Notes: generated by a model from the sequence alone, not told the origin. 64,000 nucleotides of DNA from Candidatus Obscuribacteraceae bacterium (GCA_044226015.1 JBGAHS010000007.1:64001-128000), one strand, 5' to 3'. Positions 33 through 26,201 are shown, counted from the stretch's first letter. Numbers and translations: made by a program.

Positions 33-3000
33 TTATTGCTCTACGCCAGCCTTGGGCTTCTTGTTTGGAACACCAAACTGAGAGAGGTCGGCATGCAGGC
101 TTGTAACTGGTTTTCTGGCAGCAGCAGCCTGGTTGGGCATTTGAGGTGCCTGAGGCATTTGCGGCATCTGTGGCATTTGAGGCGCCTGCGGCATCTGCGG
201 AGCCTGTGGCATCTGAGGAGCCTGCGGCATACGCGGACCATGCTCTACCTGGGGCATGAGCATTTCTTCTTGTGCCATCTGAGGTGATGGAGGCATTTGA
301 GGTGCGTGTGGCATCTGAGGAGCCTGCGGCATCTGTGGTGCCTGTGCGAAAGGTACGGCTTGAGGCATTGGGATGGCTGGAGCTACTGCGCCAGTTGGAA
401 ATGGTTGTGCTTTGGCATCAGCTGCTGGTGCTGCTGCTTCTGCGCCCACAAACTTTCCGCATTCTTTGCAGAAGCGACCCTTACCAGATTGTTTGCCACA
501 ATGTGGGCAAGCTCGTTGTGTCGTAGTAGGACCCTGTGCTGGCATCGAAGCTGCAGCTGCAGCTGGAGCTGGAGCCGGAATCTGAGCCGGAGCAGCCGGA
601 ATCTGAGCGGGCGCAGGTCCTGCCATCGCTGCTGGTGCGGTGCCTGCTATGCCCATCGCGGGTATCGGCACCGGCGCTGGTGCTGGAGTCAATGGTATTG
701 ACACCGGTGCAGCTGAACCAGGAAATGCTGGTTTGCTGCTCGCTTGTGGCTCTGGACTTCCTGTGTTGAGTATTACGGCACTGGTAGATAGTGTTGCCTG
801 ATCTGGCGCCTGTGCATTTGCAGCGGCAGCGTTTGATGCTGCTGCCATAGCTGCATCGAGAGCGGCATTGGCGGCGGCTTTTGCAACTGGTGCTGCGACC
901 CCTGGTATGACGGCTCCTGGAACTGCCGATGGTACAGCGCCACCCGGAACTCCTGGTACAGGTGCCGCTGCCGATGGGTCTTGCCCGCCGCGGTTCGACA
1001 CATTGTGCAGCAAATGCAGTCGTGCGATTTCTTCGATACCACGCAAGTCAACCATGAATGGCTTGGTTTCGCCAAATTCTGGGTCACCTGCTGGTGATAG
1101 ATATACCAGAGCGTGGTGCTTCTCCATACGCTTGATGGTGTCTGCGTCTACTCGGGCTACAACTTGTTGCGAGTGAATTCTGTTCCAACTTGTTGGGAAG
1201 ATGCCGAATCCATTCGATTCATATCTATCTGAAATACCTGGAACGATAACGGCGTGTTTACCGATTTCATCCGAGAAGAACTTAGATGTCGATTCGTCAG
1301 CATTGTGCAAGCAAACACGAATTGCGCAGTTTGAGAACAATGTCTTCAATTCTGAAGCGCCGCCCGATGTCGGGTCTGCGCTCATCTTGCCAGCAATCTG
1401 GCTGATGTTCTGAAGAATTACTGCCAGACCGCCGTTGGCGCCGCGTACAATCGCTGACAATCTGCCTGCCAGGTCGATATTCAAGGTTTGATACTCATCG
1501 AAAAACGCGAACAATGGCAGAACCGAGGCGGTACCATATCTGGTGTGCAATGCTTGTTGTAATTGATAAACGAAACATGCTGCAAGTGACTCAGCATCAG
1601 GTCCCAAGCTTGCCGGCGCACCGAAAATCAGCACGGAAGGACGGTGCATGGTTGCTTTGATGTCTACGTTCGATTGCTCGGTAACGCGCAGAACCTGTTC
1701 GTTTCTGAACATTCTCAAGCGACCACGTACACCTTGAATGTTCTTGTCCCAATCTGTATCTGTTCGAATGATTGAGGACAGAGTCATGGTTTGTTCATTG
1801 AGTTCTGTTGGGTCGACATCTGGGTTTGTCTTCAGTCGGCGTAGTGACTCAACGATGTTTCTGCGGTTGTTTACAAGTTTCATTAGACCGCGCGGATTGC
1901 AAGGCAACGGCGCAACTTCTGCAGTCTGTCCATTTTCATCATCACGAACTACTTGCACTGCGCCCCATTTCAGAAGCTTCACCAGTCCAGAGATGTATCC
2001 GTGATCACGTTCTGCCCAGTGTTGTTCTTCTGGAGGCAGCGAGTTTACGTCTTGTACGATAGATGAAGCGAAGCTAGTTGGGTCCAAATCAAGCGGGTTC
2101 CAGCAAATAGATTCAGCGTCCAGAGGGTTGAAGTACAAAGCTTCAAATCCTGCTGCTTTGGCTTCTGGCAATACTGTGTGCTTGAAGCTTTCTTTCTTTT
2201 CGTCGAGGTTCGGGTCGTTCGCTTTAGCTTCCAGTGCGATCATGACGCAAGGCTTTGCAAGCAGTGCTTTCATTACCGCACGCATCAAGGTCGTTTTACC
2301 TGAACCTGACGGAGCTACGATGAACATGTTTTTGTTTGGAAGGTGACCAAGTGGAATGGTCACTGGCAAGTGCGTTCTAGCCAGGAATCCGAATGGAATT
2401 ACAATGCCATCGGCATCTGTCCACGTCGCCTGCGGGTTGCGCTTACCCATTCTTCCATGTCTCCGCAAATTAGGCGGACACACAAATGAACGCTCGTAAT
2501 CTCGCGGTGTCATCAAGCCCGATGGCGGGTTGAAGGTTCTGATTGTTTGCCATGGGAAGAGGCGTTTCTTGTGTGCTGCTGCGACGATTAGGGCTAGCAG
2601 AACTAGAGTCGGCAATAAGATTGCAATAGAAGTTGCATCCAGAAATCCGTGAGTGCGGTAATTCTTTCCGCCAGCCAAATGAGGAGTTTGCTTTTCGACG
2701 CCTTCCAACCTATGGCTTGGGGGTGTTCCCGCCGTCTGCTCTGCTGAACCTGGTCCGAGCGTTTGCGCGCCTGGTTGAACGAGCGGGCTGCTTCCGTCTG
2801 GAGCGGGTGCTGCTGCTGGCGCTGGAGCTTGCTGCATTGGCATCTGTTGGCTCGCCATCGGCATGGGGGCTGCTTGTCCCTGCTGAGCTGGCTGCTGTCC
2901 AGGAGTGAGAACTGGGGCGAAACCTTGTTGCTGCGAACCGAGCTGTTGCTGGTTGTACTGAAATATTGGAGCTACGCCGTTGCCGCCGTATTGACCTTGT

Positions 3001-3176
3001 TGAGCTGGCGGCACTGCATACATCTGCGGTGCTTGCGGTGCCGGAGTCATGACATAGCCACCACTTTGTTGCATGAAGCGGCGTTCGAATTCTTTTGCAC
3101 TGATGACTTCACCAGTTTCAGAATCCTTATATTTAGTGATGACGCCACGATCATCGATTTGTGCTCTGTAAGGCAT
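33..3176 (-). CDS. virD4: VirD4/TraG-like type IV coupling protein with Gln/Pro-rich N-terminus and Pro/Ala-rich, zinc-ribbon-containing C-terminal tail
   Basis: Single TM segment (IAILLPTLVLLALIVAAA), Walker A APSGSGKTT, CWNPL motif, Walker B FFDEYQ and ILQNISQ; last gene of a virB3-virB4-virB8 run. Confidence 0.85.
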   Translation of the reverse strand: MPYRAQIDDRGVITKYKDSETGEVISAKEFERRFMQQSGGYVMTPAPQAPQMYAVPPAQQGQYGGNGVAPIFQYNQQQLGSQQQGFAPVLTPGQQPAQQGQAAPMPMASQQMPMQQAPAPAAAPAPDGSSPLVQPGAQTLGPGSAEQTAGTPPSHRLEGVEKQTPHLAGGKNYRTHGFLDATSIAILLPTLVLLALIVAAAHKKRLFPWQTIRTFNPPSGLMTPRDYERSFVCPPNLRRHGRMGKRNPQATWTDADGIVIPFGFLARTHLPVTIPLGHLPNKNMFIVAPSGSGKTTLMRAVMKALLAKPCVMIALEAKANDPNLDEKKESFKHTVLPEAKAAGFEALYFNPLDAESICWNPLDLDPTSFASSIVQDVNSLPPEEQHWAERDHGYISGLVKLLKWGAVQVVRDDENGQTAEVAPLPCNPRGLMKLVNNRRNIVESLRRLKTNPDVDPTELNEQTMTLSSIIRTDTDWDKNIQGVRGRLRMFRNEQVLRVTEQSNVDIKATMHRPSVLIFGAPASLGPDAESLAACFVYQLQQALHTRYGTASVLPLFAFFDEYQTLNIDLAGRLSAIVRGANGGLAVILQNISQIAGKMSADPTSGGASELKTLFSNCAIRVCLHNADESTSKFFSDEIGKHAVIVPGISDRYESNGFGIFPTSWNRIHSQQVVARVDADTIKRMEKHHALVYLSPAGDPEFGETKPFMVDLRGIEEIARLHLLHNVSNRGGQDPSAAAPVPGVPGGAVPSAVPGAVIPGVAAPVAKAAANAALDAAMAAASNAAAANAQAPDQATLSTSAVILNTGSPEPQASSKPAFPGSAAPVSIPLTPAPAPVPIPAMGIAGTAPAAMAGPAPAQIPAAPAQIPAPAPAAAAASMPAQGPTTTQRACPHCGKQSGKGRFCKECGKFVGAEAAAPAADAKAQPFPTGAVAPAIPMPQAVPFAQAPQMPQAPQMPHAPQMPPSPQMAQEEMLMPQVEHGPRMPQAPQMPQAPQMPQAPQMPQMPQMPQAPQMPNQAAAARKPVTSLHADLSQFGVPNKKPKAGVEQ
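136..345 (-). repeat. Intragenic 9/18-bp tandem repeats encoding (PQMPQA)n in the VirD4 tail
   Basis: Repeated ggcatctgaggagcctgc / ggcatttgaggcgcctgc units; translation PQMPQAPQMPQAPQMPQ. Confidence 0.85.
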
Positions 3177-3198
3177 TTAAGCTAGTCTCCGTTGCAGC

Positions 3199-3846
3199 CT
3201 ATTGTGTATTATTTCCGGCTTCGCTGATGGCCGCAATACGTAATCCCTCAGGAAGTTGTTTAACTAAGTAGATAACTTTTACATTTCTGGTTTTGCTTCC
3301 CTTGCCGGGAACGGTCAATACCTGTTCTCCTTCTACAGTGACCTCGACAGAACCATCAGCTCGAATTGGGCTCTGGTCAATTTTTTTCGTACTGAAAGTG
3401 CTTTGAACTCCTGATTGTTCAATCTGTTGAGCAATCTGTGGCGTCCAGATATTCTGAGTGTAAGCCTGTCTGCACTCTTCGGTCATAACCATCAGAGCGC
3501 GATCCTGGTTAGCGCGAGCTGAGTAGGCGCTGAGGTCCCAGGCCAGAGGCAAGAAATTTTCAACAAGCGTGCGAGCTTGCATTGGGTCGGCTGCCATCGC
3601 TTGAGCTCCCGCCCCACCCTGTCCGCCATCTGCTGGTGGACCACCCTGATAATCTTCCGGCATTCTGGCTTGACCCGTTGCATCTGGGTTGTTAGCCCAA
3701 GCTGGCGGCTGGCGGCGCTTTTGCGGACCTGAAGCTTCAGGAGTTGGCATCAACAAGACAGTAAAAAATACACCGGCCATAACGCCGGCAATTGCCACCA
3801 TTATGAGCGTTAGCTTGTATTTTTCACCTGCTTGATAGTCAAACAT
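3199..3846 (-). CDS. VirB8/TcpC-like bitopic T4SS protein
   Basis: N-terminal TM helix, then a VirB8/NTF2-like pattern (ARTLVENFL...ARANQDRAL...VTVEGEQ...EGLRIAAISE); lies between virB4 and virD4. Confidence 0.6.
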   Translation of the reverse strand: MFDYQAGEKYKLTLIMVAIAGVMAGVFFTVLLMPTPEASGPQKRRQPPAWANNPDATGQARMPEDYQGGPPADGGQGGAGAQAMAADPMQARTLVENFLPLAWDLSAYSARANQDRALMVMTEECRQAYTQNIWTPQIAQQIEQSGVQSTFSTKKIDQSPIRADGSVEVTVEGEQVLTVPGKGSKTRNVKVIYLVKQLPEGLRIAAISEAGNNTQ

Positions 3847-3850
3847 TTTT

Positions 3851-6709
3851 CTATTGCATCCTCAGCATTTCATCTTTGAAGGTTTCTGGCGTAACGCCGT
3901 TGGCGAGCAGATGGCAGGCCCATCTGTTATCGTTGTTGCAAAGTTCAATCATACGCGAACGCAGGGGTTGGTCATTGTTTGGTTCGGTCGTTGCGACCCA
4001 GTACATGAAGCGCGGAACGATGAGTTTCACAACACCGCGCGACATCTTGTGGTAGACCAGAAACGCATCTGAATACTCTCGGTTTTTTCTGGTCAAATGC
4101 CCGATGGAGGACATTTCGGCAGCGGTTAATCCGCATGAGTCGCGAATCAAATCAAAGTTACTCGGGTCGTTACCCAAAATAATTTTGATGGAACTGTTGC
4201 TTGCCAGGTTGCGTGCGCGGTCGTCTCTAAGCAAGTCTCCCAATTCCTGGGAGATGCCTATAAAGAGCAAGCCTAAGTGGCGGCTGGTACGTGAAGCGTC
4301 TTCAACGAGTGTTTTTCCGCCTTCGTAGCGAAGCAGTCTCCACAACTCGTCTATACAGAACACAAATCGCGAAGGCTTACCTTTGCCGATTTGTTCTTTC
4401 TTGTGTTTTGCTGCTCTGCGCAGAACGAAGTCCGATACGAAAAGTGTGACAACAGCCTCGAGTGTTTTGTCGTGAGACAGGTCAGCGGTGTCGAACACGA
4501 GAAGTTGCGCATCGGTTGGAATGGATGTTTCGCCGTCGAACAATTTGCCGAAGATTGCGCCCTTGCAGTAGAGACTCAATCGGTTAGCCAGGTCTTCGCA
4601 GACCTCACCGCGGCGAGCGCCCTTATTATTTGCGGCTTCATTAAAGAGCCAGGCAACAAGGTCTGACTCGATTGGCAGTCGTTGCTCAGCAGCGGTCATT
4701 TTATAAACAGCCTGGATGCCTTGCATCAAGATTGGCTTTTCTTCTTTGCTCATCGATTGCTCGCCACGTTCGCCCAGCATTACTGAGTGGAAATTGAGCA
4801 ATTTAATGATGTGCGATTCTGGTGGATTTGCCGGGTCAATCGGTTTGCCGTCAGGACCTTCCGGAGGCAAGTCGTAGAGGTTGATACAAACTGAACCGTC
4901 AGGACCCAATTTGATGTAAGCCGAATTGTCGTAGACCTCGGTGAGCAGCCTATAGCTTCCCGAACGGTCGATGATTACGCATTTCGCGCCAGCCAGCAGT
5001 TTCAACTGAATGATTTGCTGGGCAACCATGGATTTACCTTCCCCAGGTTGACCGAATACAACACAAAGCGCGTTCGGTAATTTTTCGTCGTAGGGGTTCA
5101 GGAAGACGGGCTCAAGAGTTTCTTTCGAGAAGCCTATCCAATCGCCATCGTCAGACCCTAGTTTGGCATGAACGAAGGGGAATGAGTTGCGGACCGTGGG
5201 CGTTCTTACAGCTTTGCCGCGACGAGTGAAGTCCACTCCGAGAGCTGGCAGGCTGGTGAGAAACAATTGTTTTTGCTCGTGCTGTCCAACAACGAAACGA
5301 GCCCCACGGCACTGTGGAGCTGCAGAGCGCATCATTTCTGTGTTGCGGTTCAAATCTTCGATTGAGTCAGCAACCATCGTAAAATAAATCGAGTAGTTGA
5401 ACATTTCAAGGTTCGATGTGTACAACTCTGAGCCGATTCTGGCGGCTTCTTGTGCTTTCTCAGCTTCTTCCTGGTTCGGTGCAGAGCGCGGACCCATCAC
5501 CCCCTGGTAGGTGTTCGCTGTTGCCTGTGCTTGCTTGCGTTGCAAGTTTTTTCTAAACAGGTCTTTGTCCAACTTGTGGCAGTAAATGTTCATTCTCCAC
5601 TGGCAATTGAGGCGCAGCAGTGGCATCAACCATAGTGGAGCCGTTCGTTCCGGCAAGCGGCTCATGTATAGCGTTCTAACGAATTTCGCCTTCTCTCCAC
5701 CACCCTCAGCATCGGTTTCTGTGAGGTCGGAAATTTTTGCAAAATCAGGCTTACTGAAATCGTAAAGCGACTCTGCCAGCTGCTGTCTGATTGTGGCAGG
5801 CTCCATGTCCGGGAAAACTCTTCTCAGTCCCGGAGGCATCGGCGCGGTGTTCGGACGAATTGGTTCTGGCAAATTCTGCATTCCATAACTCTCTGCAAGA
5901 GTCGGATTGAAATTCTTGTATAGAAATTGGAAATACTCTTTTGCCGAAATTGGACGAGCGCTCATTCCGCATGCTCCTAACTGAGCAACGTGACCTTGAG
6001 CTCGTTGAATCAAGGTCTGAACATTTTTGCCATGCGCTGCTACGGTCTGCCGAGCGGCCTGATTTTGGAAGCTATCGATGACATGGTTGACAGTGTTTTC
6101 AATCCATCCTTGCTTTGCTGGCTTTTCTCTTGGGGGGCGGTAGCAAAAGGTGACAAAGAACTTAAGCTCAGGGATGAAGTTTTTCGAGAGGAGGAAGGAC
6201 TCGTCGTTTTCAACACTTTTGGCAACATACTTGAGGAATTCATCATCTTCTTTGACCTCTACAGGGTGACGCAGGAAGTAATCTTTTTTGCTCACGTTAT
6301 GGCAGGCAATCGTGAGCTGAACTGAAGTATCAATGCTATTAACGAAGCCGGTGAAATGGTTCATTAAAGAGACCAATCTGACTTCGTCAAAACCGCTTAC
6401 GTGGACTCCATCCACTTCGAAGCAACAGCGATAGCTGCCGTCTTTCAAAACTACAACGCCCAAACCCGAAGCATCATCATGGAACAAATCCCACAGTGGC
6501 GCTAACCCAGCAGCTGAATTGTGCGGACGGGGCACTTCGTTTGCGGGCAACTTAGACATACCTGGTGCTGGCATTTGCGCCCCAGCACTGGTTTTGTTTC
6601 CGAGCAATCCGATCAGATTAGAGAGAGGATTAGTCTTCTCCTGATAGTTGCGTAAAGAGCTAGCCATTTCGTTGTTGTTACTCATTGAATTCAAGAAGCG
6701 ACTCGTCAA
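3851..6709 (-). CDS. virB4: VirB4/TraE-like T4SS ATPase (alternative ATG start at 6685)
   Basis: Walker A VFGQPGEGKS, IIDRSGSY, INLYD, Walker B FCIDELW, SRHLG...ISQE; 952 aa; directly downstream of a PrgI/VirB3-like gene. Confidence 0.9.
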   Translation of the reverse strand: MTSRFLNSMSNNNEMASSLRNYQEKTNPLSNLIGLLGNKTSAGAQMPAPGMSKLPANEVPRPHNSAAGLAPLWDLFHDDASGLGVVVLKDGSYRCCFEVDGVHVSGFDEVRLVSLMNHFTGFVNSIDTSVQLTIACHNVSKKDYFLRHPVEVKEDDEFLKYVAKSVENDESFLLSKNFIPELKFFVTFCYRPPREKPAKQGWIENTVNHVIDSFQNQAARQTVAAHGKNVQTLIQRAQGHVAQLGACGMSARPISAKEYFQFLYKNFNPTLAESYGMQNLPEPIRPNTAPMPPGLRRVFPDMEPATIRQQLAESLYDFSKPDFAKISDLTETDAEGGGEKAKFVRTLYMSRLPERTAPLWLMPLLRLNCQWRMNIYCHKLDKDLFRKNLQRKQAQATANTYQGVMGPRSAPNQEEAEKAQEAARIGSELYTSNLEMFNYSIYFTMVADSIEDLNRNTEMMRSAAPQCRGARFVVGQHEQKQLFLTSLPALGVDFTRRGKAVRTPTVRNSFPFVHAKLGSDDGDWIGFSKETLEPVFLNPYDEKLPNALCVVFGQPGEGKSMVAQQIIQLKLLAGAKCVIIDRSGSYRLLTEVYDNSAYIKLGPDGSVCINLYDLPPEGPDGKPIDPANPPESHIIKLLNFHSVMLGERGEQSMSKEEKPILMQGIQAVYKMTAAEQRLPIESDLVAWLFNEAANNKGARRGEVCEDLANRLSLYCKGAIFGKLFDGETSIPTDAQLLVFDTADLSHDKTLEAVVTLFVSDFVLRRAAKHKKEQIGKGKPSRFVFCIDELWRLLRYEGGKTLVEDASRTSRHLGLLFIGISQELGDLLRDDRARNLASNSSIKIILGNDPSNFDLIRDSCGLTAAEMSSIGHLTRKNREYSDAFLVYHKMSRGVVKLIVPRFMYWVATTEPNNDQPLRSRMIELCNNDNRWACHLLANGVTPETFKDEMLRMQ

Positions 6710-7022
6710 TTAGGAATCGAGTTGGGTTAGGGTCAGGACCAGGAATTAGGACTGAAGAGGTGACATAGAAGTTGATGAATGTTTCCCATGAAACGCCGCC
6801 GCCACTGCGGGCAGTGACGAGGCAGTAAATCGGACCCACCATAAAAATGAGAATAGAAATGTCGAGGCGAAGGTCGTGCCCTCCCATGATGGGCAGTGGG
6901 TTCATCCAGGAATATAGCTGCGTTGATGCAATTAGCGAACCGAGCACAGTGATCAACTGGTCGTAGCGTAAGCCAAAAAGCTTCGGTTGGTCTTCTAGAT
7001 TGAGGGGTGTTATGTCTTCCAT
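6678..7022 (-). CDS. PrgI/VirB3-like membrane protein
   Basis: N-terminal PLNLEDQPKLFGLRYDQL matches the PrgI-family pattern; two TM segments; overlaps the virB4 start. Confidence 0.7.
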   Translation of the reverse strand: MEDITPLNLEDQPKLFGLRYDQLITVLGSLIASTQLYSWMNPLPIMGGHDLRLDISILIFMVGPIYCLVTARSGGGVSWETFINFYVTSSVLIPGPDPNPTRFLIDESLLEFNE

Positions 7023-7033
7023 CTTACTCTGTC

Positions 7034-7720
7034 CTAAGCTGCATTGAAGGCTTTTACTGGGGCGAACATGTTTTCCACCAGATAAGGTGGCAGAAGGGTA
7101 GTTGATGGGTCAGCTGAGCGAGTCTGAACCTTTTGTCTCGTTATGAGACACTCGGGAAGTCTCTGTCCTGCCACTGCGAGGTCGAGGTGTTTGAGTGCTG
7201 CTTTGAAGTCAGACTCCTGTCGGCAAAGTTCTCCGAGAAGATATTGGTAAAAGCCGCGATCTTTCCTTGTGCTTGGGTGTCTGAGCGCCTTCTCCAGTTC
7301 TTCTCTGGCAATTCTCGACCAGTTAGAATGAGCCGTTTTGCCATCTCGCGCACACCAGCTGGCATTGAGTGCAACCAGTCCGAGTTCGAGATGGTTCAGT
7401 TTGTGTTGTTTGCCGCAAATGTATGCTCGGGCGAACTTTCGCAAATGCTCGTCTCTGGAACGATAGTCTGCTTCTGCTGACTCATCCAGCGAGAGCAGAC
7501 GAAAAGTTTTGAGCCACCAGGCATAGCCGCAGTGTGAGCACATGCTGATCGCCGCGCCTCTGAATGCAGATGTCGCATAAACACGATGAAGGTCGGTTTC
7601 GAATTTAGTTTCTGCTGTGATGCAATCGACTGTGTTTGGTACAGCCGTGCTGAATGAGAAGCTGCATGCTGGACATTCAACTCTTGCAACACTGAGGGTG
7701 AAATCAGCCACGATTTGCAT
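7034..7720 (-). CDS. DUF2225-like protein (two CxxC zinc knuckles plus TPR-like helices)
   Basis: CPAC...ETDLHRVY...CSHCGYA; ALNASWCAR; YLLGELCR; first gene of the virB3-virB4 block (11-bp gap). Confidence 0.7.
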   Translation of the reverse strand: MQIVADFTLSVARVECPACSFSFSTAVPNTVDCITAETKFETDLHRVYATSAFRGAAISMCSHCGYAWWLKTFRLLSLDESAEADYRSRDEHLRKFARAYICGKQHKLNHLELGLVALNASWCARDGKTAHSNWSRIAREELEKALRHPSTRKDRGFYQYLLGELCRQESDFKAALKHLDLAVAGQRLPECLITRQKVQTRSADPSTTLLPPYLVENMFAPVKAFNAA

Positions 7721-7820
7721 TTAGTACCTCAAAAGAAACTTGGGTCTTTGACCCTGAAAACAGTCCCCGCCACGCCAATCGGACCACTTTCGTAGGTAGA
7801 TTATGCAATATTCACAATGC

Positions 7821-7892
7821 CGGTAAATCGGGGAAATCACCATATAAGTGGGAATATTCCCATGCTACACGTTTTTAGTGGGGAAATTACGT
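7821..7892. promoter_or_regulatory. Operator-like palindrome cluster (CGGGGAAATCACCA 7829, perfect palindrome TGGGAATATTCCCA 7849, TGGGGAAATTACGT 7879)
   Basis: Read directly from sequence; about 110-170 bp upstream of the 7720 start; first two sites are 20 bp apart. Confidence 0.6.
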
Positions 7893-8047
7893 ATTCTGTA
7901 ATACGAATTGCAGAATATTTTTGCCCCGACAGAGACGAGCATCAGGCGAGATTTAAGCTTAATTCTCACATCCGCAGAGCTTCACGAGCCCTGCCTTCTT
8001 GATTTTGCGAAAAGGTGGCAGCACCAGCAAAGCCTCTGGGCGCACAC

Positions 8048-18037: not shown

Positions 18038-18064
18038 AGCTAAACGCTAGCGTTGGGCTGCCGC

Positions 18065-21000
18065 TTAGGCGTCATCGCCGCCGCCACCTGGAGCAAATCG
18101 TTTTGCAGACTTCACGATTCGGTCAATCAAATCTGCGGAGAAGTTGTTTGGATTTTTCGCACTGTAGCTAGGATCGCGCTGAACCATCTTGATGATAGCC
18201 GGGCTAATCTTCACGTGACCCCAATCTGGGTCTGATGCATGCGACGAACGCAGCTGGTCGATTGCGGAAGCAACTTCAAGATTTCCGAGATTGATGTCTT
18301 TAGAACGTCCATCGTTGTCCAGGTATTCCTCAACGACACGAATATGTTGCGGTGTGGTTCCGCCACCACCCATGATGCGGGTAACGACGTTGATTGCTTG
18401 AGGACTGTATGGGTGCGAGCCGCCATCTCTGACCAACATTTCGACAGCTTTGGAATCTGTCCATTGCGTGTCTGAGAAGTTGCCACCCTGACGAGACAGC
18501 GCGATGGCTTTCTGTACCACGGTGCCAGACGATGAGCCTCTGCTTTCGAGTGCGTCGACCACTTCAACCACTGTCATTGAGCTTGTATCGATGCCATGTG
18601 ATGAGGCTTCTGCCCGAGCGATATTATCGAATACAACTGCAGCAGAATTCGGGTTCTTAACGACTTGCTGAACCTGAATGGTTCCTTTGGCGATTTTTTC
18701 GATGTCGCCCCATGGAACGGTGTCATTGATAGCATAGCCTTGCTGTGCTGCAACTTCGATAACTTGCGGAGCGACAGAGCCTGAACCACCATGAGAGTAG
18801 GCTTTCTCTGCCAGAATAATGCGTGCCTGGTCCATGCTTCCAACCGAGCCGCCATTGCGCTCGTAGCTGACCAATGCTTCCAATGTGCTTGCGCTTCTGT
18901 CGACGCCGACCGTGTTGCAGGTCTTCGCGACGATGTTGAGTGCTCTCTGACCAGCCACCGAGCTGAGTCCAGCAGCGCCGTAATTCGCGAGGAATCCGTA
19001 CACATCTGCCATCGCTGGTGTGGAGAGTTGAGCCATCGGAACTCTGGCTGTCTGTGCTTGAGACAGAACCCCGCCAGTTTCTTCCATGATGACTTGCATC
19101 GCTTGAGCGTGGCTCTGACCAGCCGCCGGAACGATGACTGCTGCAAGGTCTGAGTAGGTGGAGATGCCGCTGATGTTTGCATTTGAAGGAATGAAATTCA
19201 TTCTGCGAGCTGTCTCTGGCATTCTTGCGATCAGTGAGCTGTATGCCGTGCCGTAGTCGACTTGAGCGGCGCTCGCAACTGCTGCAGTGCCAGCCATGAG
19301 TTGTGGAGCCATTGTAGAGTTGAGGTCGGCCTGACCGGTGGTTTGGTACATGACGAGTGATTGTTCAACTTCAGCAGCTGACAAAGATCGTGCCATTTCG
19401 CCATGACCGAGTGCAAATACTGATGGATGCTCGTTTCCGTACATCTCTTTGGCACGCTGATAGGTGTAGGACAATGCCGCGAATACGGCTTGCTTTCTGC
19501 GTGCTGGGTGCATGCCCTGAATAGACATGTTCTGCATCGCGCCTCTTGTGTCGGCGCCGATTGGAATACCGCTTGATACCAGAGCATCCGTAGCTGGTCC
19601 AATGTTTCTGTTCCATGGAGATTCGCTGGAGTCTGGGTTGGTGATGAGGTGAACAGCCATAGCGTCTTGCTCGTCGCCCCACTCTCCATATCTGCCGCGC
19701 AGGTAGTCGGTGTATGCGTTGCCTTTCTGCTTGGACACATAAGCTTGTGAGCCCTTCACAGCTTGCTCGAACATCGCCTGTTGGAATCTTTGCTTGGAGA
19801 TAGCTGTCCTGTTCCAGCTGCTGCCGGTGTTGCTCAACCAGTTGGCTGCCATGTTTTCCAGTGCGCCCTTAGGCTGATGAGCGCCAGCATCCATCGCGGA
19901 TTTTCTTGCTGCGTCTCTTGCAGGGTCGTCAGTTGATACGTTGTTGGCGAAACCTGCAGAGTAGATTGCGTGAGCCATTTCAGAATCGCTAGCGCCTTCA
20001 GCGATGTTGACGCGCTGAATACCATTGGCGGTGCTACCGAGAGCAGATGTTCTCTTCTGTCCTACGCGCAAACCGACACCATCAACCGACGTCAATTTAC
20101 CGAGCAATTTTCTTGTGTCAACGTGAATTAAGTTCGACTCGTTCCAACCTTCAGCAGTTGATTTGCCCCACTCGAATTTATCGCCTGGTGGCTTGAGTCC
20201 GCCTTCGCCATCAGGCGGAGGTCCCTTCGGCGCTTCGGGTGGTCCGGATGCTGTTGGTTTGCCTTCTGCGCCAGCTGCCAGTGCGCCAGCCAGAGCGCCG
20301 AGACCTGCCGCAGCCACTACGCCGCCAGTCTTCACGTCTTTCTTTGGCGGAACTGGAACTGTGGTCGAGAGTGATTTTTCTCCGATTCCTTTGTCGCCTG
20401 GCTTGCCTTCTGCCGTCTTGAGTTTGGGGTCGGTCTTGTCGATAGGTGGAACTGCGCCACTCTTGCCCAGTCCATCGCCTGTGCCTGTACCGAGCGGTTT
20501 CATCGCTGGAGCTGGTCCACTTGCAGCCAGTTTGCTTGGGTCAGCGGCGCCATCTTTCTGAGTTACTTTGTTCAAGCTGTTCAGCAATTCAGGATTTGAG
20601 CTCTTGCCAGGTAAGCCGTTCATAGCGGCATCTTTTGTGACATTGAGACCTTTGTCGGCAAATCTGTCGTTGGTGAACCAGTTGATACCTTTATCTGTCA
20701 ATGCTGTGCTCATGTCCTTCAGTCCACCCAGTGCTTTACTGAATGTTCCGAAGACCAGACCTGCCGTGACGAAGTCTGATACTGGGCTGATTTGTGCGCG
20801 ACCGAGGAAGCTTGGCACTTGAATCATCAGCTGCAGTACGCCGATAGAAATGAGAATTTTGCCCCAGGGGTTGAAGTTAGAGAAAAGGATGATGGTCATC
20901 ACTTTTAGCAAGCCGACCCATACGAATGTCCACAAGCTGGTTTCAACGAAGGCGCGCACATAGCCGGTTGCATAACTTTCTGTGTCAGGTGTTGCAAAAA

Positions 21001-22231
21001 ACACAAGGAAGATAGGAGCGAACATGTATTGTGCAGTCAGGAGAGCTGTCTGAACGGCTTTGAGAATAAGAATGTAGACCAACTCGGCAATTAAGATGCC
21101 ACCGAGAATGGTGAAAATCATTGTTGAGGCGAAGTAAAAGAGTGAGCCGACAAATTGTCCAGCCACTGGAATCGCCAGGTTAGCCAGGAGAGGAGCAAAC
21201 ACGCTTGTAGCTCCGGCACCTGCTGCGATAACACCGCCTTTGACTGCTTGAGCCAGAGCATAGTCGAGCATCAGCACCTGGTCTGCACTGTTGAAATAAA
21301 TTGCCTTGATCATTTCGTTTGAAATCTGAATCTCAAACGCATATATGGTCGGCCAGGCAAGTAGTAAGCCTGCTGTGAAAATCAAACGACCGACTGGTCC
21401 CATCAGGTTGCCTGCGCCACCCCAGGAAGCATCTGCCCAGAATTTCCAGATACAGAGAATGAATAGAAGAAGTAGAAGGTCGACGGCAATTCCGTACATC
21501 ACATCAGCGCCCTGACGAATGTATGGCGAGATGCCATCATTTTGCTGTCCGTTCAAGCCGTTGACGGCTATGTTCGGGTTGAGCACGAATACACGGAGGA
21601 ACTTCGCGAGGAACTGCGCGGTGTCCGCGATCCATCCATCAATTAGTTCAGACAACCACTTACCGAACAACTGACCGATGTTCTGGAAGAGGTTGCCTAC
21701 GATGTCATCTTTGAAGAACTGGTGCATGCCTCGATAGGTGTCATTAACTGACCCGAGGCTAGCATTCAATATATTATTTGCTGCTTTCTGAACGTCGCCG
21801 CCCTGACCCTGTTCGGCAGCCTGGAACACGACTGGTGCATAATTTCCTGTAAGGATTTTTGCGACACCATCATCGATGTTTCTCTGGTTTGTTGGAATCG
21901 CCTGGTCGACACGGTACATGTTGCCAACCGCATCTTCATACGGGTTCGGAACTGTATTTTCAGTTTTCTTACCGGCTTGAGATGGGTCCTGACTGCCCTG
22001 CCCTTGTCCCTGCAGAGTTTCAGCAGGCTTGGTTTGAGCGAAAGTCGGTGCCATTGCACAAAGGTGCATAGCCAGTATAAGCATTAAACCGATGAACGCG
22101 TTGCGTTTGCGATTCAGCACCGCGCTTGGTGCTCGCAATGACTTGACGAGCTTGTTTAAAACGTCTGATAGCTGGCCAGGCGTCTTGCCTTCCAGCTTTG
22201 TTGTTTCGCTAAAACCCTTACTGTGAGTCAC
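18065..22231 (-). CDS. Giant VirB6/TrbL-like polytopic T4SS protein with signal peptide and ~850-aa C-terminal extension
   Basis: Cluster of 6-7 hydrophobic segments at about aa 240-500 including the VirB6-typical AQYMFAPIFLVFFATPDTE..ATGYVRAF; follows a pilin-like gene. Confidence 0.75.
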   Translation of the reverse strand: MTHSKGFSETTKLEGKTPGQLSDVLNKLVKSLRAPSAVLNRKRNAFIGLMLILAMHLCAMAPTFAQTKPAETLQGQGQGSQDPSQAGKKTENTVPNPYEDAVGNMYRVDQAIPTNQRNIDDGVAKILTGNYAPVVFQAAEQGQGGDVQKAANNILNASLGSVNDTYRGMHQFFKDDIVGNLFQNIGQLFGKWLSELIDGWIADTAQFLAKFLRVFVLNPNIAVNGLNGQQNDGISPYIRQGADVMYGIAVDLLLLLFILCIWKFWADASWGGAGNLMGPVGRLIFTAGLLLAWPTIYAFEIQISNEMIKAIYFNSADQVLMLDYALAQAVKGGVIAAGAGATSVFAPLLANLAIPVAGQFVGSLFYFASTMIFTILGGILIAELVYILILKAVQTALLTAQYMFAPIFLVFFATPDTESYATGYVRAFVETSLWTFVWVGLLKVMTIILFSNFNPWGKILISIGVLQLMIQVPSFLGRAQISPVSDFVTAGLVFGTFSKALGGLKDMSTALTDKGINWFTNDRFADKGLNVTKDAAMNGLPGKSSNPELLNSLNKVTQKDGAADPSKLAASGPAPAMKPLGTGTGDGLGKSGAVPPIDKTDPKLKTAEGKPGDKGIGEKSLSTTVPVPPKKDVKTGGVVAAAGLGALAGALAAGAEGKPTASGPPEAPKGPPPDGEGGLKPPGDKFEWGKSTAEGWNESNLIHVDTRKLLGKLTSVDGVGLRVGQKRTSALGSTANGIQRVNIAEGASDSEMAHAIYSAGFANNVSTDDPARDAARKSAMDAGAHQPKGALENMAANWLSNTGSSWNRTAISKQRFQQAMFEQAVKGSQAYVSKQKGNAYTDYLRGRYGEWGDEQDAMAVHLITNPDSSESPWNRNIGPATDALVSSGIPIGADTRGAMQNMSIQGMHPARRKQAVFAALSYTYQRAKEMYGNEHPSVFALGHGEMARSLSAAEVEQSLVMYQTTGQADLNSTMAPQLMAGTAAVASAAQVDYGTAYSSLIARMPETARRMNFIPSNANISGISTYSDLAAVIVPAAGQSHAQAMQVIMEETGGVLSQAQTARVPMAQLSTPAMADVYGFLANYGAAGLSSVAGQRALNIVAKTCNTVGVDRSASTLEALVSYERNGGSVGSMDQARIILAEKAYSHGGSGSVAPQVIEVAAQQGYAINDTVPWGDIEKIAKGTIQVQQVVKNPNSAAVVFDNIARAEASSHGIDTSSMTVVEVVDALESRGSSSGTVVQKAIALSRQGGNFSDTQWTDSKAVEMLVRDGGSHPYSPQAINVVTRIMGGGGTTPQHIRVVEEYLDNDGRSKDINLGNLEVASAIDQLRSSHASDPDWGHVKISPAIIKMVQRDPSYSAKNPNNFSADLIDRIVKSAKRFAPGGGGDDA

Positions 22232-22263
22232 GTTTGCTGAACCTGAGAGAGAAACGCTTCATG

Positions 22264-22298
22264 GATTTATATTCCCGACTTCAGTGGGAAAATCCGTA
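22264..22298. promoter_or_regulatory. Tandem operator-like sites GATTTATATTCCCG (22264) and TGGGAAAATCCGTA (22285) upstream of the virB6-like gene
   Basis: 21-bp spacing; same motif family as at 7849, 17393 and 24309. Confidence 0.45.
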
Positions 22299-22338
22299 AA
22301 ATAACGGGTCGGTACATGAATAAACATATACCGACCCG
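22298..22338 (-). terminator. Intrinsic terminator-like hairpin after the pilin gene
   Basis: Inverted repeat CGGGTCGGTA (22305-22314) / TACCGACCCG (22329-22338) followed on the minus strand by TTATTTT. Confidence 0.7.
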
Positions 22339-22354
22339 ACTTGAGAGCTTTGGA

Positions 22355-22783
22355 TTAGAGACCGCCGCCCAGACCGCCGAAGTTGTTGATTGCGAATGTA
22401 CCGATGAGGTGAACAGCGGTTGGTCCGCCGAATCCTACACCGAGACCCTTAGCAACGTTCATTGCGGATTCACCACCGTCTCTCTGACCGAATGCAATCT
22501 TCATGCCAGCGAGTGATGAGGGGACTGTCGAAAGTGCAGTTACTACACGGGAAATATCTCTTGCGGTGTCATAACCGTAGTCAGCCAATTGACCGACTTC
22601 GTTTGATTGTCCGTAACGTGGGTCTACTGGCGCACCCACGAGACCTTGGGCATGCGCAACTTGATCGTATACGCCGAAAGCCATGAGGACTAGTTGAGGA
22701 GCCAGGAGAATACCTACGCGCGAAGCAACCCGGAATGCTCTGGAAGAGACGACTTTCTTCGAAAGAGTGCTGAGTTGTGACAT
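22355..22783 (-). CDS. VirB2/TrbC-like pilin
   Basis: Long signal peptide ending AHA-Q; two hydrophobic helices separated by GMKIAFGQRDG; 142 aa; upstream of virB6-like gene; AGGAGG RBS. Confidence 0.6.
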   Translation of the reverse strand: MSQLSTLSKKVVSSRAFRVASRVGILLAPQLVLMAFGVYDQVAHAQGLVGAPVDPRYGQSNEVGQLADYGYDTARDISRVVTALSTVPSSLAGMKIAFGQRDGGESAMNVAKGLGVGFGGPTAVHLIGTFAINNFGGLGGGL

Positions 22784-22834
22784 TGTTGAACCTCCTGAAA
22801 GGATTGATCTTGTTGTGTGGAAACGAGTAAGGAT

Positions 22835-23476
22835 TTAATGTTTGAGGATGCGACCGTTAACAGCGGTTCTAACACTGTTTCCGGAACTGCTTGAAGGCAA
22901 GGAGCCTCCGGGCATATAGCCTGTGCTGTACGAAGCAACTGCTGGACTTGCAGATTGGCCAACGTGCTTGTGGGGTGTAAGCAGCTTGCCGCTAACATGA
23001 GCATTATGTGAGCGAGCAACTGGTCTGTGCGCCGGTGCAGCTTGTCTTACTGCCGGAGCGGTCGAAGTTCCTGGTCCAACTGCTGGTGGAAGCTGTGCCA
23101 TTTGAATTGGCGCTCCTGCACTCATTGGTTGTACCGGTTGTCCGAACGACGGGTTGAAGGCCGTTGTCGGAACGAAAGCTCTACCTGTGACCTGAGGCAT
23201 TGCTGGTCTAGCAGCAACCTGAGGAACTGGGGCTGGTGGGCGATTAAGCATGCCTGGTTCCAACCCGAGGAAACTTGAACTGCGGGGCATTGAACCTTGC
23301 TGCACTGATGGTGCGCCATAGCCCTGTGGAAGTCTTGGTTGTTCAACTCTATAAACGTTTGGAGCGAATGACCAGCGCGCGCCGCGCTCTTTAGCCTGGG
23401 CATTTGCTTGCTGCGCATCTACTGTGACCAGCGCTGCAACTGAGAGAAGTGACATAAGGAAGAATCTGCTTTTCAT
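22835..23476 (-). CDS. Secreted Pro/Gln/Ser-rich hypothetical protein
   Basis: Signal peptide MKSRFFLMSLLSVAALVTVDAQQANA; ATG at 23476 lies 4 bp after the upstream stop (ORF track start 23509). Confidence 0.7.
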   Translation of the reverse strand: MKSRFFLMSLLSVAALVTVDAQQANAQAKERGARWSFAPNVYRVEQPRLPQGYGAPSVQQGSMPRSSSFLGLEPGMLNRPPAPVPQVAARPAMPQVTGRAFVPTTAFNPSFGQPVQPMSAGAPIQMAQLPPAVGPGTSTAPAVRQAAPAHRPVARSHNAHVSGKLLTPHKHVGQSASPAVASYSTGYMPGGSLPSSSSGNSVRTAVNGRILKH

Positions 23477-23480
23477 TAGC

Positions 23481-24206
23481 TTAAAACCTTGAGTTATTGC
23501 GGACACCAAATCCGGTCATTGTGGTTGCGAACATGCCGGCACCCATCCAGGGGTTGTTAGACCAAAAACCTGATGTCATTGCACCTGCACCGAACGCTCC
23601 TGCGTAATTCAGAATGTTGGAAATTCCGCCCCTGCGAGTATTAACTTGTTTAGGTTGATTGTTTGAGCCACCAGTCAGCGTTTGAGTTTGTGCGATATAG
23701 CCTTGTTGCATTTGCTGATTGTTAGCCATTTGGAAATTTGGACCGCCCAGGCTGTTTTGTGCCATCGATGACGAGGACATCATGTCCATTCCTGGAGCTT
23801 GTGGAGCCATTCCTGGCGCCGTTGTTTGTTGTTGAGCTAGTGAGGGTTGAAGACCCGCTCTCCAGACTTTGTTCATAGCATCTGGAGGAAGCACTGTTTG
23901 ATCGCCCATCAATTGACCGAGAGCTTGTCTGCGGAGGTCCATCGGGTTTCCAGAGTCTGTAAGACCAGGAACTGAAGAACCGGCTGACATAGCAGCTTGT
24001 CTTGATTGAGCCTGGCTGGCACTAAGAGCACTTGCCGAACCCGGGTCGAGTGGCACCACTTCTGGTGGCAGCAACGCGTCCTGGTCAGGACCGATGCTTG
24101 CAGATGGATTAATGGATTGCATAGTTCCAGCTTCCATGCCTTGAGCCATCGCCGGCGCTGTCGCCAACATTAGACTTAGAATCAGGAGTGTGAGCTTGCC
24201 AACCAT
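23481..24206 (-). CDS. Secreted Met/Gln/Gly-rich hypothetical protein with C-terminal glycine-rich hydrophobic segment
   Basis: Signal peptide ending AMA-Q; C-terminal AGAFGAGAMTSG..WMGAGMFATTMTGFG. Confidence 0.75.
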   Translation of the reverse strand: MVGKLTLLILSLMLATAPAMAQGMEAGTMQSINPSASIGPDQDALLPPEVVPLDPGSASALSASQAQSRQAAMSAGSSVPGLTDSGNPMDLRRQALGQLMGDQTVLPPDAMNKVWRAGLQPSLAQQQTTAPGMAPQAPGMDMMSSSSMAQNSLGGPNFQMANNQQMQQGYIAQTQTLTGGSNNQPKQVNTRRGGISNILNYAGAFGAGAMTSGFWSNNPWMGAGMFATTMTGFGVRNNSRF

Positions 24207-24288
24207 TTCTATCTACTCTTTCCGGTGTCGGGTGAAATTTGTTTCAACCAGTGCGTGAATAATACGATCTTCATACTTAGACTAGAAG

Positions 24289-24322
24289 ACGGGTAATTCC
24301 CATCGGCATGGGAAGATTCCCA
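24289..24322. promoter_or_regulatory. Tandem operator-like sites ACGGGTAATTCCCA (24289) and TGGGAAGATTCCCA (24309)
   Basis: 20-bp spacing; in the intergenic region upstream of 24206. Confidence 0.6.
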
Positions 24323-24341
24323 CTGAGCACTTCCAAATCAA

Positions 24342-25325
24342 TTAGAAGTTTGTCACGACTGCCTTCGGAAGCAGCATCTGATTGCGCTTCTGGTTCGGAA
24401 CGTTGGAAGGCGAGAACTGTGTATAAGGGAATCCGAAGTCGGTCGTCTTATTGCTGTAAACGGGGACGCGTCGCATACCCTGACCGAATTCAGTAGCCTG
24501 GTTGGCGTGAAGTGCTGAAATGCCGTTATAACGCATAGCACTGTTACCATAATCCTGAATTGACTGAGCCGTAGAGATGGTTTGACCGCCCACAGAGAAG
24601 CGTTGTCCACCGCCAAGGTCGATAGAGCTGTTACGCATGCCATTTCCAGTCGACACACCGAACGGTACGCCGTAACCTGCCATAGGTCCGAGCAATTGCA
24701 CCTGGTCCTGGCTGCAGTCGCCGCCCAGTCCACCGAGGGCTGAATTGCGTCCACGAAGTTCATACTGGCGAGTTTCCTGACCACCTCTTCTCACGGTAGG
24801 AATGGTGGTGCAATAGCCGCCTGCTCCAGGAATGCCGCCGTCTGGATTAATTGGCAATTGAGCCGCTGGGTTCATCGAGCCCATTGGGGCGGTCAACATT
24901 CCAGGGTCAGCGCCGGGAGTAGATGGTGGCGTTGGAACGAAAGGTGTCAGCAATGGTCCGAGTACGCCAGGTGGCGACTGAATTGCTGGTGAAAATGGAA
25001 TTGGAATACCAGAGCTTCCACCACGAATATCATTAGAAGGAACGGATGGAACCCATGGCAAAAGTGTAGGAGCGCCGGTATGACCAGGCACTACTGGTGC
25101 TGCCGTCGGTCCGTCACCGGTTGCTGGCGGTGCACCTTCTTGAGCTGGCACGAAGGGGAGTCCTGTCTGGCTTCCAGCGACGATTGGACTTCTCAGTCCG
25201 AACGCTGGAGCGCCCACGAGGTTGCAACCATTGCTGGTACTGCTAGGTGCGCCCTGCGCTAGTGCAGCTGTAGGAGCAGCAATCGCGACAGTGAGTGAAA
25301 TTCCAAGAATGTTTCGAAGCAGCAT
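24342..25325 (-). CDS. Secreted Pro/Gly-rich hypothetical protein (paralog of 25351..26085)
   Basis: Signal peptide ending ALA-Q; shares GCNLxGAPAFGLRxP and GHTGAPTLLP with its neighbour; AGGAGG RBS. Confidence 0.8.
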   Translation of the reverse strand: MLLRNILGISLTVAIAAPTAALAQGAPSSTSNGCNLVGAPAFGLRSPIVAGSQTGLPFVPAQEGAPPATGDGPTAAPVVPGHTGAPTLLPWVPSVPSNDIRGGSSGIPIPFSPAIQSPPGVLGPLLTPFVPTPPSTPGADPGMLTAPMGSMNPAAQLPINPDGGIPGAGGYCTTIPTVRRGGQETRQYELRGRNSALGGLGGDCSQDQVQLLGPMAGYGVPFGVSTGNGMRNSSIDLGGGQRFSVGGQTISTAQSIQDYGNSAMRYNGISALHANQATEFGQGMRRVPVYSNKTTDFGFPYTQFSPSNVPNQKRNQMLLPKAVVTNF

Positions 25326-25350
25326 TGGTACGGCCTCCTGAGCCAGTAAG

Positions 25351-26085
25351 TTAGTAAGGAGCGATAGTCATAGTGGTGCAACCACTACGCGTGTAACCAC
25401 GTTGTCCATAAAGGTCTTGTGTAGCCATTGCACCAGGCAATGATTGGTACGGTCCATCTGTAGACAGCTGCCCATAGGAGGCTTGTTGTCCCCAGTCATA
25501 AGAACGCGTTCCTCTATATTTGTAGCGACCCCAATCGGTCGTTGTTTGTCCGCCCCATTTCTGGGTCGGTGCGCTGGCGCTGATGCCACCACCTGGGTTG
25601 ATGTTGGTGAGCGTTACAGGCGGAGTGTAAGTGCGAGTGTTGTAACAGCCACCGCCCATCGGTCCACTAATCATGCCCGGGTCGCAACCTGGTGTTGATG
25701 GAGGAGGCGGAACTGAATAACTCGGACCAAGCTGACCTGGCATAGATTGATTTGCTGGGTCGTGGTTTAGTGTGAATGTTGGTGTGCCGAGGTGATCGGT
25801 AGGATAGTCAGGATTTTGCGGCAGCAAGGTCGGTGCACCGGTGTGCCCCGCGACCACTGGTGCCGGGCATGCGCCGTCGCCGATTGCTGGAGGACGACCA
25901 GCAGGTGCCTGAACGAATGGTGCACCGTATGATGCTCCGTTGACTAATGGCGTTCTCAGTCCGAAAGCTGGTGCTCCCGCGAGGTTGCAACCGCCGCCTG
26001 AAGAAGCCTGTTGAGCATTCGCTGGCAACGCAAGCGCCAGCGCTAGTAAGAGAATTGAACTTGTGCTCAGCTGATTTAGTCTCAT
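25351..26085 (-). CDS. Secreted Pro/Gly-rich hypothetical protein (paralog of 24342..25325)
   Basis: ATG at 26085 with AGGAG RBS gives signal peptide MRLNQLSTSSILLLALALALPANA (ORF track start 26202). Confidence 0.8.
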   Translation of the reverse strand: MRLNQLSTSSILLLALALALPANAQQASSGGGCNLAGAPAFGLRTPLVNGASYGAPFVQAPAGRPPAIGDGACPAPVVAGHTGAPTLLPQNPDYPTDHLGTPTFTLNHDPANQSMPGQLGPSYSVPPPPSTPGCDPGMISGPMGGGCYNTRTYTPPVTLTNINPGGGISASAPTQKWGGQTTTDWGRYKYRGTRSYDWGQQASYGQLSTDGPYQSLPGAMATQDLYGQRGYTRSGCTTMTIAPY

Positions 26086-26166
26086 CTTTGCTCCTGTTTC
26101 GTTCTCAGGTCGCTCTCGCACACCTGGACTCCTCACAAAAGTAGGACTTCTAATAATGAATGTCGT

Positions 26167-26201
26167 TGGGGCGATTACGCACCCTATTACGGTTTCTCCC
26201 A
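26167..26201. promoter_or_regulatory. Tandem operator-like sites TGGGGCGATTACGC (26167) and TACGGTTTCTCCCA (26188)
   Basis: 21-bp spacing; the second site reverse-complements to TGGGAGAAACCGTA, close to the 22285 site; followed by CTGAG as at 24322. Confidence 0.45.

Follow-up and report, generated by a model that had tools for sequence, protein, structure and literature searches.

The 64-kb stretch of DNA analysed here (the window, G000:C10:64001-128000) is part of a 577-kb contig in the 8.19-Mb assembly, 13 contigs in total, of a Candidatus Obscuribacteraceae bacterium that served as our reference genome G000. Positions 33 to 26202 of this window carry an atypical chromosomal type IV secretion system (T4SS). 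The order was taken as Obscuribacterales, an uncultured order of non-photosynthetic cyanobacterial relatives with genome sizes of about 2.8-9.6 Mb, and the named homologues are mostly assigned to Ca. Obscuribacterales or Melainabacteria. The original prediction, made from the sequence alone, had proposed a domesticated chromosomal T4SS with lineage-specific subunits, and this view is borne out: the system is vertically inherited, host-owned, under purifying selection and present throughout the order.

All genes of the system lie on the minus strand, and each of the proposed canonical subunits is backed by profile, atlas or fold evidence. The coupling ATPase gene virD4 (33-3176, 1047 amino acids (aa); PF02534, E 2e-15) has intact Walker A and B motifs, a CxxC-CxxC motif and long low-complexity tails at both the N- and the C-terminus. 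The neighbouring gene encodes a VirB8-like bitopic protein of NTF2 fold (3199-3846). Its AlphaFold2 model (pLDDT 81) matches IcmL, TraM, DotI, CagV and VirB8 in Foldseek, with plastid ARC6 as top match; sequence alignment against solved sequences gave no match and the fold search alone worked. The ATPase VirB4 (3851-6709, 952 aa) is recognized by PF19044 and TIGR02746 (E 3e-48). A PrgI/VirB3-like membrane protein (6678-7022) follows, for which PF12666 is found weakly in 4 of 26 homologues (best E 0.002). Further along, an extended VirB6 of 1388 aa (18065-22231; atlas TrbL_3/4/5, 0.90-0.92) ranges from 765 to 2509 aa in relatives and has two more full-length paralogues elsewhere in G000. The VirB2-like pilin (22355-22783) has a leader and then two hydrophobic helices, is 78-98% identical across the order and occurs in 1-4 tandem copies. 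Its atlas matches are the pilin-type families DUF4134 (0.90) and DUF2976 (0.88), both of which we take to be conjugative pilin families. PrgI, VirB8-like protein, VirB6 and pilin of G000 had no direct match to a hidden Markov model, and their labels come from homologues, fold or atlas.

Two accessory proteins of the DUF2225 type were confirmed by profile matches. The first (7034-7720) combines CxxC motifs with a TPR-like part, and in the relatives mapped one or two copies stand directly upstream of prgI; DUF2225 is also found in a second locus of some genomes. The other (14943-17324) has a long disordered tail and is a duplication seen in five genomes of the same genus. Four secreted proteins with signal peptides and no family match fill the head of the operon, as had been proposed: the Pro/Gly-rich s224 (22835-23509) and s241 (23481-24206), both conserved in order and position, the Pro/Gly-rich s327 (24342-25325), which is 43-85% identical in relatives, and its paralogue s283 (25351-26085). 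The start of this last open reading frame (ORF), first placed at 26201, is probably at 26085. The stretches 7721-14942 and 17373-17951 are missing at this place in the relatives mapped; they are strain-specific inserts outside the conserved system. The larger one holds an RHS fragment, a bestrophin and a 504-aa HExxH protein without signal peptide (12080-13594), with the motif at residue 259 and three paralogues in the genome.

A 42-bp element at the operon head (26161-26202, minus strand) is conserved in 12 of 13 genomes viewed and unique in G000 (38.7 bits against 18.4 for the next site). It is likely an alternative-sigma promoter. A riboswitch was considered and dropped, as there is no Rfam match, and so was a regulon marker, since the genome has no second full site. 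A half copy (19.5 bits) lies reversed at window position 22284 (plus strand), between pilin and virB6. The right flank runs into housekeeping genes as described, with o233 and rarA (26827-28947, rarA at 27652-28947) and then uvrC, radA and lgt. The impression of no obvious compositional break has to be corrected to a mild step: GC content is 51-52.5% over the core genes and 46% on the right flank. GC at third codon positions is 0.46-0.55 in the core genes tested, with a genome median of 0.45.

Thus the parts expected of a T4SS are present, namely VirB4, VirD4 with Walker motifs, VirB3/PrgI (weak) together with VirB6 and VirB8, and a VirB2-like pilin. The proteobacterial P-type (mating-pair formation type T) does not describe it. 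The VirB4_T profile scores 124 bits against a cut-off of 643, PF03524 (VirB9) has no match in G000, and no VirB11 was found in G000 outside Tad loci, where the VirB11-like matches are sub-cut-off and the Tad assignment comes from neighbouring sequences. VirB4 is matched to a similar degree by the profiles TraC-F (164 bits) and CD1110 (156 bits), and the best 30 plasmid VirB4 matches reach only 20-25% identity. These results agree with the claim that the system is unlike P-type machines. No adjacent VirB10 had been noted, which holds for the neighbourhood of the cluster, but four sub-cut-off VirB10/TrbI-like matches exist elsewhere in G000, one of them in the second locus. None of the 19 tyrosine integrase matches in the genome is on the 577-kb contig, in line with the earlier claim of no integrase; serine recombinases were not searched for with a profile.

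The distribution of the system was followed in genomes of which most look like draft metagenome assemblies. Of 27 further genomes of the order, 25 have a VirB4 orthologue of 62-93% identity and two match the paralogue alone, while 13 genomes of other orders gave weak matches of 22-28% in two. A census of 80 genomes, each at least 85% complete, with 10 VirB4 candidates scored per genome, found VirB4 in all 80, the pilin domain in 79 (as a stand-alone gene in 77) and a relaxase-like gene, described below, in 77. All 39 high-quality genomes have the pilin domain, and the pilin profile had no match in 250 other genomes of the phylum. Among the 120 matches listed in the VirB4 homologue search, near relatives alone occur. 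In the 17 relatives used for gene-order mapping the genes follow one another as s283-s327-s241-s224-pilin-virB6-DUF2225-prgI-virB4-virB8-virD4 as far as the contigs reach, and rarA anchors the cluster in 10 of them. Exceptions are extra pilin copies and inserts (G009, G011, G020), a split cluster in G025 and a fragmented one in G008. Comparison of VirB4 with RpoB as species tree gave largely congruent trees in 20 genomes, with 10 of 17 splits in common, one strong conflict (G011 with G025) and a patristic correlation of 0.80. The relaxase-like tree has three conflicts, each involving the long branches G011, G022 and G025. For VirB4 (8 pairs) nonsynonymous divergence (pN) is 0.01-0.13 against 0.23-0.77 for synonymous divergence (pS), and with few exceptions the pairs of VirB4 and of relaxase-like genes have a pN much lower than pS; the difference is weakest in degenerate relaxase pairs (G025/G027, 0.025 against 0.119; G025/G026, 0.25 against 0.72). 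Four RNA runs, belonging to three studies of sludge or biofilm, each gave contigs over most of the pilin gene, which speaks for presence in RNA libraries and not for level. The stretch 6500-18378 is not covered; the runs had been found with 21500-26300, and hence the coverage ranks no genes.

Just beyond the window edge (positions 1-32), a gene of the Replic_Relax family begins 146 bp past the virD4 stop (G000:C10:63035-63886, L001:17035-17886, minus strand, 283 aa; PF13814, E 5e-12). The statement that there is no relaxase is thus right inside the window and does not hold immediately outside it. It is the sole PF13814 match in G000. In 11 of 26 cases oppF points towards the relaxase-like gene from no more than 1.5 kb away. 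PF13814 proteins are classed as MOBC relaxases (PMC5357655). Among 27 aligned sequences of the order the PD-(D/E)xK residues D175 (27), E193 (22) and K208 (24) are widely kept, and the D-E-D-K set is complete in 22. Features of a MOBC relaxase are thus found in part: the winged helix-turn-helix (wHTH) and the PD-(D/E)xK site are present (22/27), the conserved tyrosine is absent. The fourth residue past the lysine is tyrosine in 67 of 78 homologues from outside the order (93 matches ranked 15-107, of which 15 were too short and were dropped) and in none of the 27, where it is Phe in 24, including G000, Leu in two and Thr in one. In TraX, Y181 is essential for pAD1 transfer (PMC6736028), and the family tyrosine would occupy the equivalent position. 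Five genomes (G008, G011 and G025-G027) no longer have the catalytic Glu of the active site; they keep the machine, although fragmented in G008.

Upstream of the relaxase-like gene lies a conserved site, ATTT-n-n-GGGGTA (G000:C10, about 63911-63930, minus strand). In a leave-one-out scoring it reaches at least 13 bits in 19 of 27 genomes and is the best-scoring site in G000; in a control, one of 2,000 upstream regions reached 16 bits. The site is missing in all five copies with a dead active site and is poor in G014, G021 and G023. Judged by its sequence it may be an origin of transfer (oriT), bound or nicked by the protein, or a promoter, as it reads like what we take to be a group-3 sigma consensus. 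The MOBC-type protein has likely ceased to work as a standard relaxase and would be a hydrolytic nickase or a regulator that binds DNA. The interval from virD4 to the relaxase-like gene often carries inserts (G002, G005, G007, G008, G017, G022, G023, G024). An integration hotspot was considered for this interval and rejected, because other junctions carry inserts too and the conserved site is single and not at both ends. In G007 the insert is a giant protein without signal peptide, and G023 (L082-L083), G024 (L085-L086) and G017 (L087) have a common serpin-led cluster of 15-29 kb here.

The Replic_Relax family also appears in a different setting. G000 has a second rpoB (G000:C11:702253-711571, L202:7253-16571) encoding 1279 aa with 42% identity to the main copy and six Rpb2 Pfam domains. 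The genes downstream encode a protein resembling s283, then a secreted protein, and a Replic_Relax paralogue with a dead catalytic site (profile E 8e-15). This gene order with the degenerate paralogue is kept in 10 of 11 relatives, the contig of the eleventh ending there. Most genomes compared have a second rpoB match, and we found no paper on it.

The original prediction described a real cluster, but missed that there are at least two paralogous loci. Locus 2 (G000:C1:182285-211355) encodes a VirB4 with 33% identity and a PrgI, one candidate for VirB8 and two for VirB6, and the TrbI/VirB10-like protein already mentioned. It further codes for a lipoprotein, another small membrane protein, and pairs of secreted Gly/Pro proteins and of TPR proteins. 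In G000 it has neither VirD4 nor pilin. The VirB6 and VirB8 labels in this locus are those of candidates, assigned by position and sequence pattern without a profile match. All 6 relatives viewed keep locus 2, with the VirB6-like pair missing from it in G021. The lipoprotein is modelled as a coiled-coil hairpin with an Ig domain, a generic fold that gave no specific T4SS match; an assignment as VirB9 was therefore discarded. Orphan paralogues of the extended VirB6 (62%), of the VirB8-like protein and of TrbI-like genes are scattered over G000 (C1:171194-174379, C4:238902-242321, C11:823849-824904, C10:34332-35309, C9:73102-74073 and C1:1274326-1275039).

The order also harbors a family of mobilizable elements that bring no channel of their own. 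In G000 (C2:2024-6038) a NikA-like ribbon-helix-helix (RHH) protein, a MOBP relaxase and a separate coupling protein occur without mating genes, and the full content of the family includes RHH protein, MOBP relaxase, type IV coupling protein, a 224-aa membrane protein and a DnaJ protein (G000:C2:2024-9966, L200). A decayed copy lies near an integrase (C12:320759-332102, L201). The coupling-protein family of these elements is found in 62 of 80 genomes with 1-9 copies each, in 61 of 77 genomes of the main family, f1, 0 of 2 of f2 and 0 of 221 from other orders of the class. From 176 matches, 17 loci were picked for long contigs. The relaxase adjoins the coupling protein in 16 of them and an RHH gene is present in 14; an integrase-like ORF is seen in 3 and a tRNA in 6. 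With the chromosomal proteins as queries and a search for large ORFs with a P-loop, no T4SS gene was found within about 10 kb in any of the 17 loci. A relaxase with a coupling protein but no mating-pair genes is the layout of integrative and mobilizable elements (IMEs). Near-identical copies occur in different genera, and element distances correlate with RpoB at r 0.10 (11 sequences), chromosomal VirB4 at r 0.96 (7 genomes). The element family is patchy and spreads horizontally. Mobilizable elements need a channel in trans. VirB4 matches number two in 62 of the 80 genomes, one in 5, three in 12 and four in one, and a high-scoring canonical VirB4 occurs in 2 of the 80 (G011, G068). The elements thus likely borrow the chromosomal channel, since canonical VirB4 is so rare and the chromosomal T4SS is the sole order-wide channel seen.

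The pilin domain also occurs in longer proteins. The mature pilin domain, beginning right past the predicted leader, forms the C-terminus of 96 of 101 longer matches, and about 74 pilin-ended proteins exceed 900 aa, mostly VIT proteins. Of 15 that were scanned, 10 relate to XrtN/MSEP-CTERM-sorted proteins and two to sortase targets, three having no match. The pilin-ended VIT families end elsewhere in sorting signals, and therefore the pilin occupies the usual position of the sorting signal. One of these VIT-family membrane proteins (1008 aa, G000:C1:951942-954968, L135:6942-9968) has many homologues across the order.

Candidate cargo and other export routes were considered in G000. It has no match to FlhA, the gate of type III secretion systems (T3SS), or to VipB, the sheath of type VI secretion systems (T6SS), but does have ComEC, type IV pilus ATPases and exosortase. 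Among 18 giant proteins without signal peptide some have RHS, FHA, annexin, LysM, phosphatase or beta-amylase domains and 8 have no match; they have no direct tie to the T4SS. A secretion signal in proteins without signal peptides was not enriched by regular expression (46 against 43, 33 and 38), and Gibbs sampling stayed near shuffles. A seeded profile gave 32 N-terminal matches against 8 and 14 in controls, but these include its own six seeds and the profile then trains on itself; it is a weak lead from sequence pattern.

We give an even chance to the reading that this is a host T4SS, inherited vertically, that exports cargo into contacted cells and doubles as a mating channel for order-specific mobilizable elements. 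VirB4, PrgI, VirB6 and VirB8 of both loci would form the inner-membrane part, while the secreted Pro/Gly proteins, the locus-2 lipoprotein and the VirB10-like protein might span periplasm and outer membrane. A pilus would cap the channel that delivers cargo to contacted cells. VirD4 would recruit the host's own cargo. This is likely protein for the most part, since genomes in which the active site of the relaxase-like protein is gone still have the machine. The channel would remain competent for DNA, and the mobilizable elements would connect to it through a coupling protein of their own. Predation or effector delivery, as first proposed, is plausible. The term non-conjugative is too strong because a MOBC-type gene with a conserved upstream site belongs to the locus and the channel-less elements are confined to the order, a sign that DNA goes through the machine.

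Several observations weigh against this reading. Most genomes retain the D-E-D-K residues and an upstream site, a pattern better suited to live DNA processing than to a regulator. The locus-2 virB4 of G000 has two in-frame TAA stops (G000:C1:183853-183882); it is open in relatives, with stops in G000 alone among the genomes compared, and may be a pseudogene or an assembly error. As far as models and profiles go, the outer-membrane core is unassigned, the lipoprotein fold being generic and the VirB10-like matches sub-cut-off. Candidate effectors have no convincing secretion signal, and every link between cargo and channel is a co-occurrence. Draft assemblies lose plasmids, so the elements may use unbinned conjugative plasmids, and the third VirB4 matches in 11 genomes, from the 10 candidates scored in each, were not inspected.

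The strongest competitor is dedicated transfer of chromosomal DNA, possible though rather less than probable. The MOBC-type protein would nick the site beside the gene that encodes it, or similar ones, without becoming covalently attached by a tyrosine; VirD4 would pump chromosomal DNA to kin in a manner resembling Hfr or distributive transfer. This fits a relaxase-like gene that is single-copy and downstream of virD4 in most genomes, with D, E, D and K kept in 22 of 27 sequences, and it fits the neighbourhood of rarA, uvrC and radA. The upstream site outscores all others in the 8.2-Mb genome and is gone wherever the active site is dead. A covalent link may be dispensable, since CloDF13 MobC leaves a free 5' end (PMC6736028). 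However, the tyrosine of the family is replaced in all 27 sequences, and the equivalent residue, if TraX Y181 is that, cannot be spared in pAD1 (PMC6736028). In addition, the machine persists without the active site and three genomes with an intact active site have no good site. The inserts between virD4 and the relaxase-like gene are unflanked by site copies. The site is also promoter-like, by the group-3 sigma consensus that we assume.

At a similarly tentative level, we consider a bolder version of the borrowed channel. Here the system would be a mating organelle of the core genome, into which a dedicated family of elements plugs to spread between genera. The pilin would have become a C-terminal sorting tag by which VIT/vWA proteins are attached to the pilus, and DNA-binding proteins derived from relaxases, one of them encoded beside the second RNA polymerase beta subunit, would control the programme.

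The opposite view, that the device serves protein export or adhesion only (in predation, competition or symbiosis), is unlikely. The elements would then ride on conjugative plasmids missing from the assemblies, and the pilus would display VIT/vWA proteins through the C-terminal pilin domain. VirB6 is extended, variable and multi-copy, pilins stand in tandem, and the pilin domain is C-terminal in families that end elsewhere in sortase or exosortase signals. T3SS and T6SS are lacking and Patescibacteria offer a parallel (PMC12102498); canonical VirB4s in G011 and G068 point the same way. Against it, elements are common in near-complete assemblies with two chromosomal VirB4s alone (G012, G060, G061, G079, G081), and the element family stops at the edge of the order. 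Import of DNA for repair, akin to archaeal Ced/Ted, is very unlikely: the core of VirB4, VirB6 and pilin, a locus 2 without VirD4 and the repair-gene neighbours would suit it, but coupling protein and relaxase-family gene point outward, and ComEC with type IV pilus ATPases already gives a route of uptake. An ordinary or decaying integrative and conjugative element (ICE) is refuted, because, although virD4 beside a MOBC-family gene just outside the window is an ICE/IME layout (PMC5357655), the order-wide census of pilin, relaxase-like gene and VirB4 leaves no patchiness, the site is fixed, the VirB4 tree follows RpoB, selection is purifying and the contig has no tyrosine integrase.

The system has partial parallels elsewhere. 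The T4SS of Patescibacteria is also chromosomal, lineage-wide and mostly vertical, has VirB4, PrgI, VirB6 and arrays of VirB2-like pilins and lacks a P-type outer-membrane core (PMC12102498). It is nested in MPF_FATA, with coupling proteins near virB4 in 148 of 5,713 cases and 58 MOBC genes in 3,035 genomes (PMC12102498), whereas VirD4 and the MOBC-type gene are fixed in the Obscuribacterales locus. Pilins of Patescibacteria are about 25% identical (PMC12102498), those of Obscuribacterales nearly invariant, and the Obscuribacterales have a duplicated core, VirB8-like and VirB10-like genes and genomes of 3-9 Mb. In pAD1 TraX, CloDF13 MobC and streptococcal class-8 IMEs a wHTH and PD-(D/E)xK protein likewise stands beside VirD4 (PMC12857230, PMC5357655). 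Unlike these MOBC elements, the Obscuribacterales locus is immobile, has no integrase or replicon and has the tyrosine replaced; some lineages have lost the active site, and a second, dead paralogue accompanies the second rpoB. Streptomyces SCT, mycobacterial DCT, mycoplasma MCT and the gonococcal GGI (PMC12857230, PMC6736028), and also archaeal Ced/Ted, use T4SS-type parts to move DNA that is not their own element. They rely on plasmids, ICEs, islands or ESX, or else bring DNA in; the accessible text of these sources describes none as an order-wide core-genome channel borrowed by IMEs. Within the same bacterial class, Vampirovibrio chlorellavorus has a T4SS for which predatory use was proposed, with a VirB4_T, largely plasmid-borne and close to Nitrosomonas (PMC4451040). 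The low VirB4_T score sets the Obscuribacterales system apart. The rvh T4SS of Rickettsiales is vertical and spread over separate loci; virB4 and virB8 are duplicated, VirB6 occurs in several extended forms and there are multiple pilins. It is a P-type system with VirB9, VirB10 and VirB11 and no relaxase, and the likeness is one of layout alone. We found no description of the present system in the literature covered, which leaves out most subscription papers; the supplements of PMC4451040 and of T4SS surveys could list its genes.

The lifestyle of the Obscuribacterales is, to our knowledge, unknown. A contact machine in essentially every genome suggests that cell-to-cell export is central to it. 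If the borrowed channel is real, mobilizable elements would depend on a host core genome instead of a helper plasmid or ICE, and the T4SS classification would gain a class-level addition in the cyanobacterial phylum. The order is also a natural setting in which to learn whether the tyrosine of MOBC proteins is required. The element family merits its own description, and the pilin-as-tag fusions and the second rpoB are independent leads.

Some further observations were made in passing. G000 has 77 proteins of 1,500-14,391 aa, most with a signal peptide and a common C-terminal domain (a 58-member cluster), and a smaller set of giant proteins without signal peptides shows a loose N-terminal helix pattern, A-S-x-x-L-x-x-E/D-A. 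In a 440-459-aa membrane family the pilin is split around a large insert (P0202-P0205, P0207), and P0208 combines a pilin motif with a VirB6-like segment near its end. Singleton fusions of the pilin to BlaR1, TIR, kinase and WD40 proteins (P0108-P0112, P0116), untraced to contigs, were left out of account, and a weak pilin match at C7:245142 turned out to be Tic20-like. An array of 18 tRNA genes lies on the contig of the window (G000:C10:356333-358584). Finally, a GH14 beta-amylase of 915 aa with a long N-terminal extension and no signal peptide (G000:C8:585694-588514, L196) is preceded by a partial operon-head element (22 bits) and would suit starch-bearing prey.

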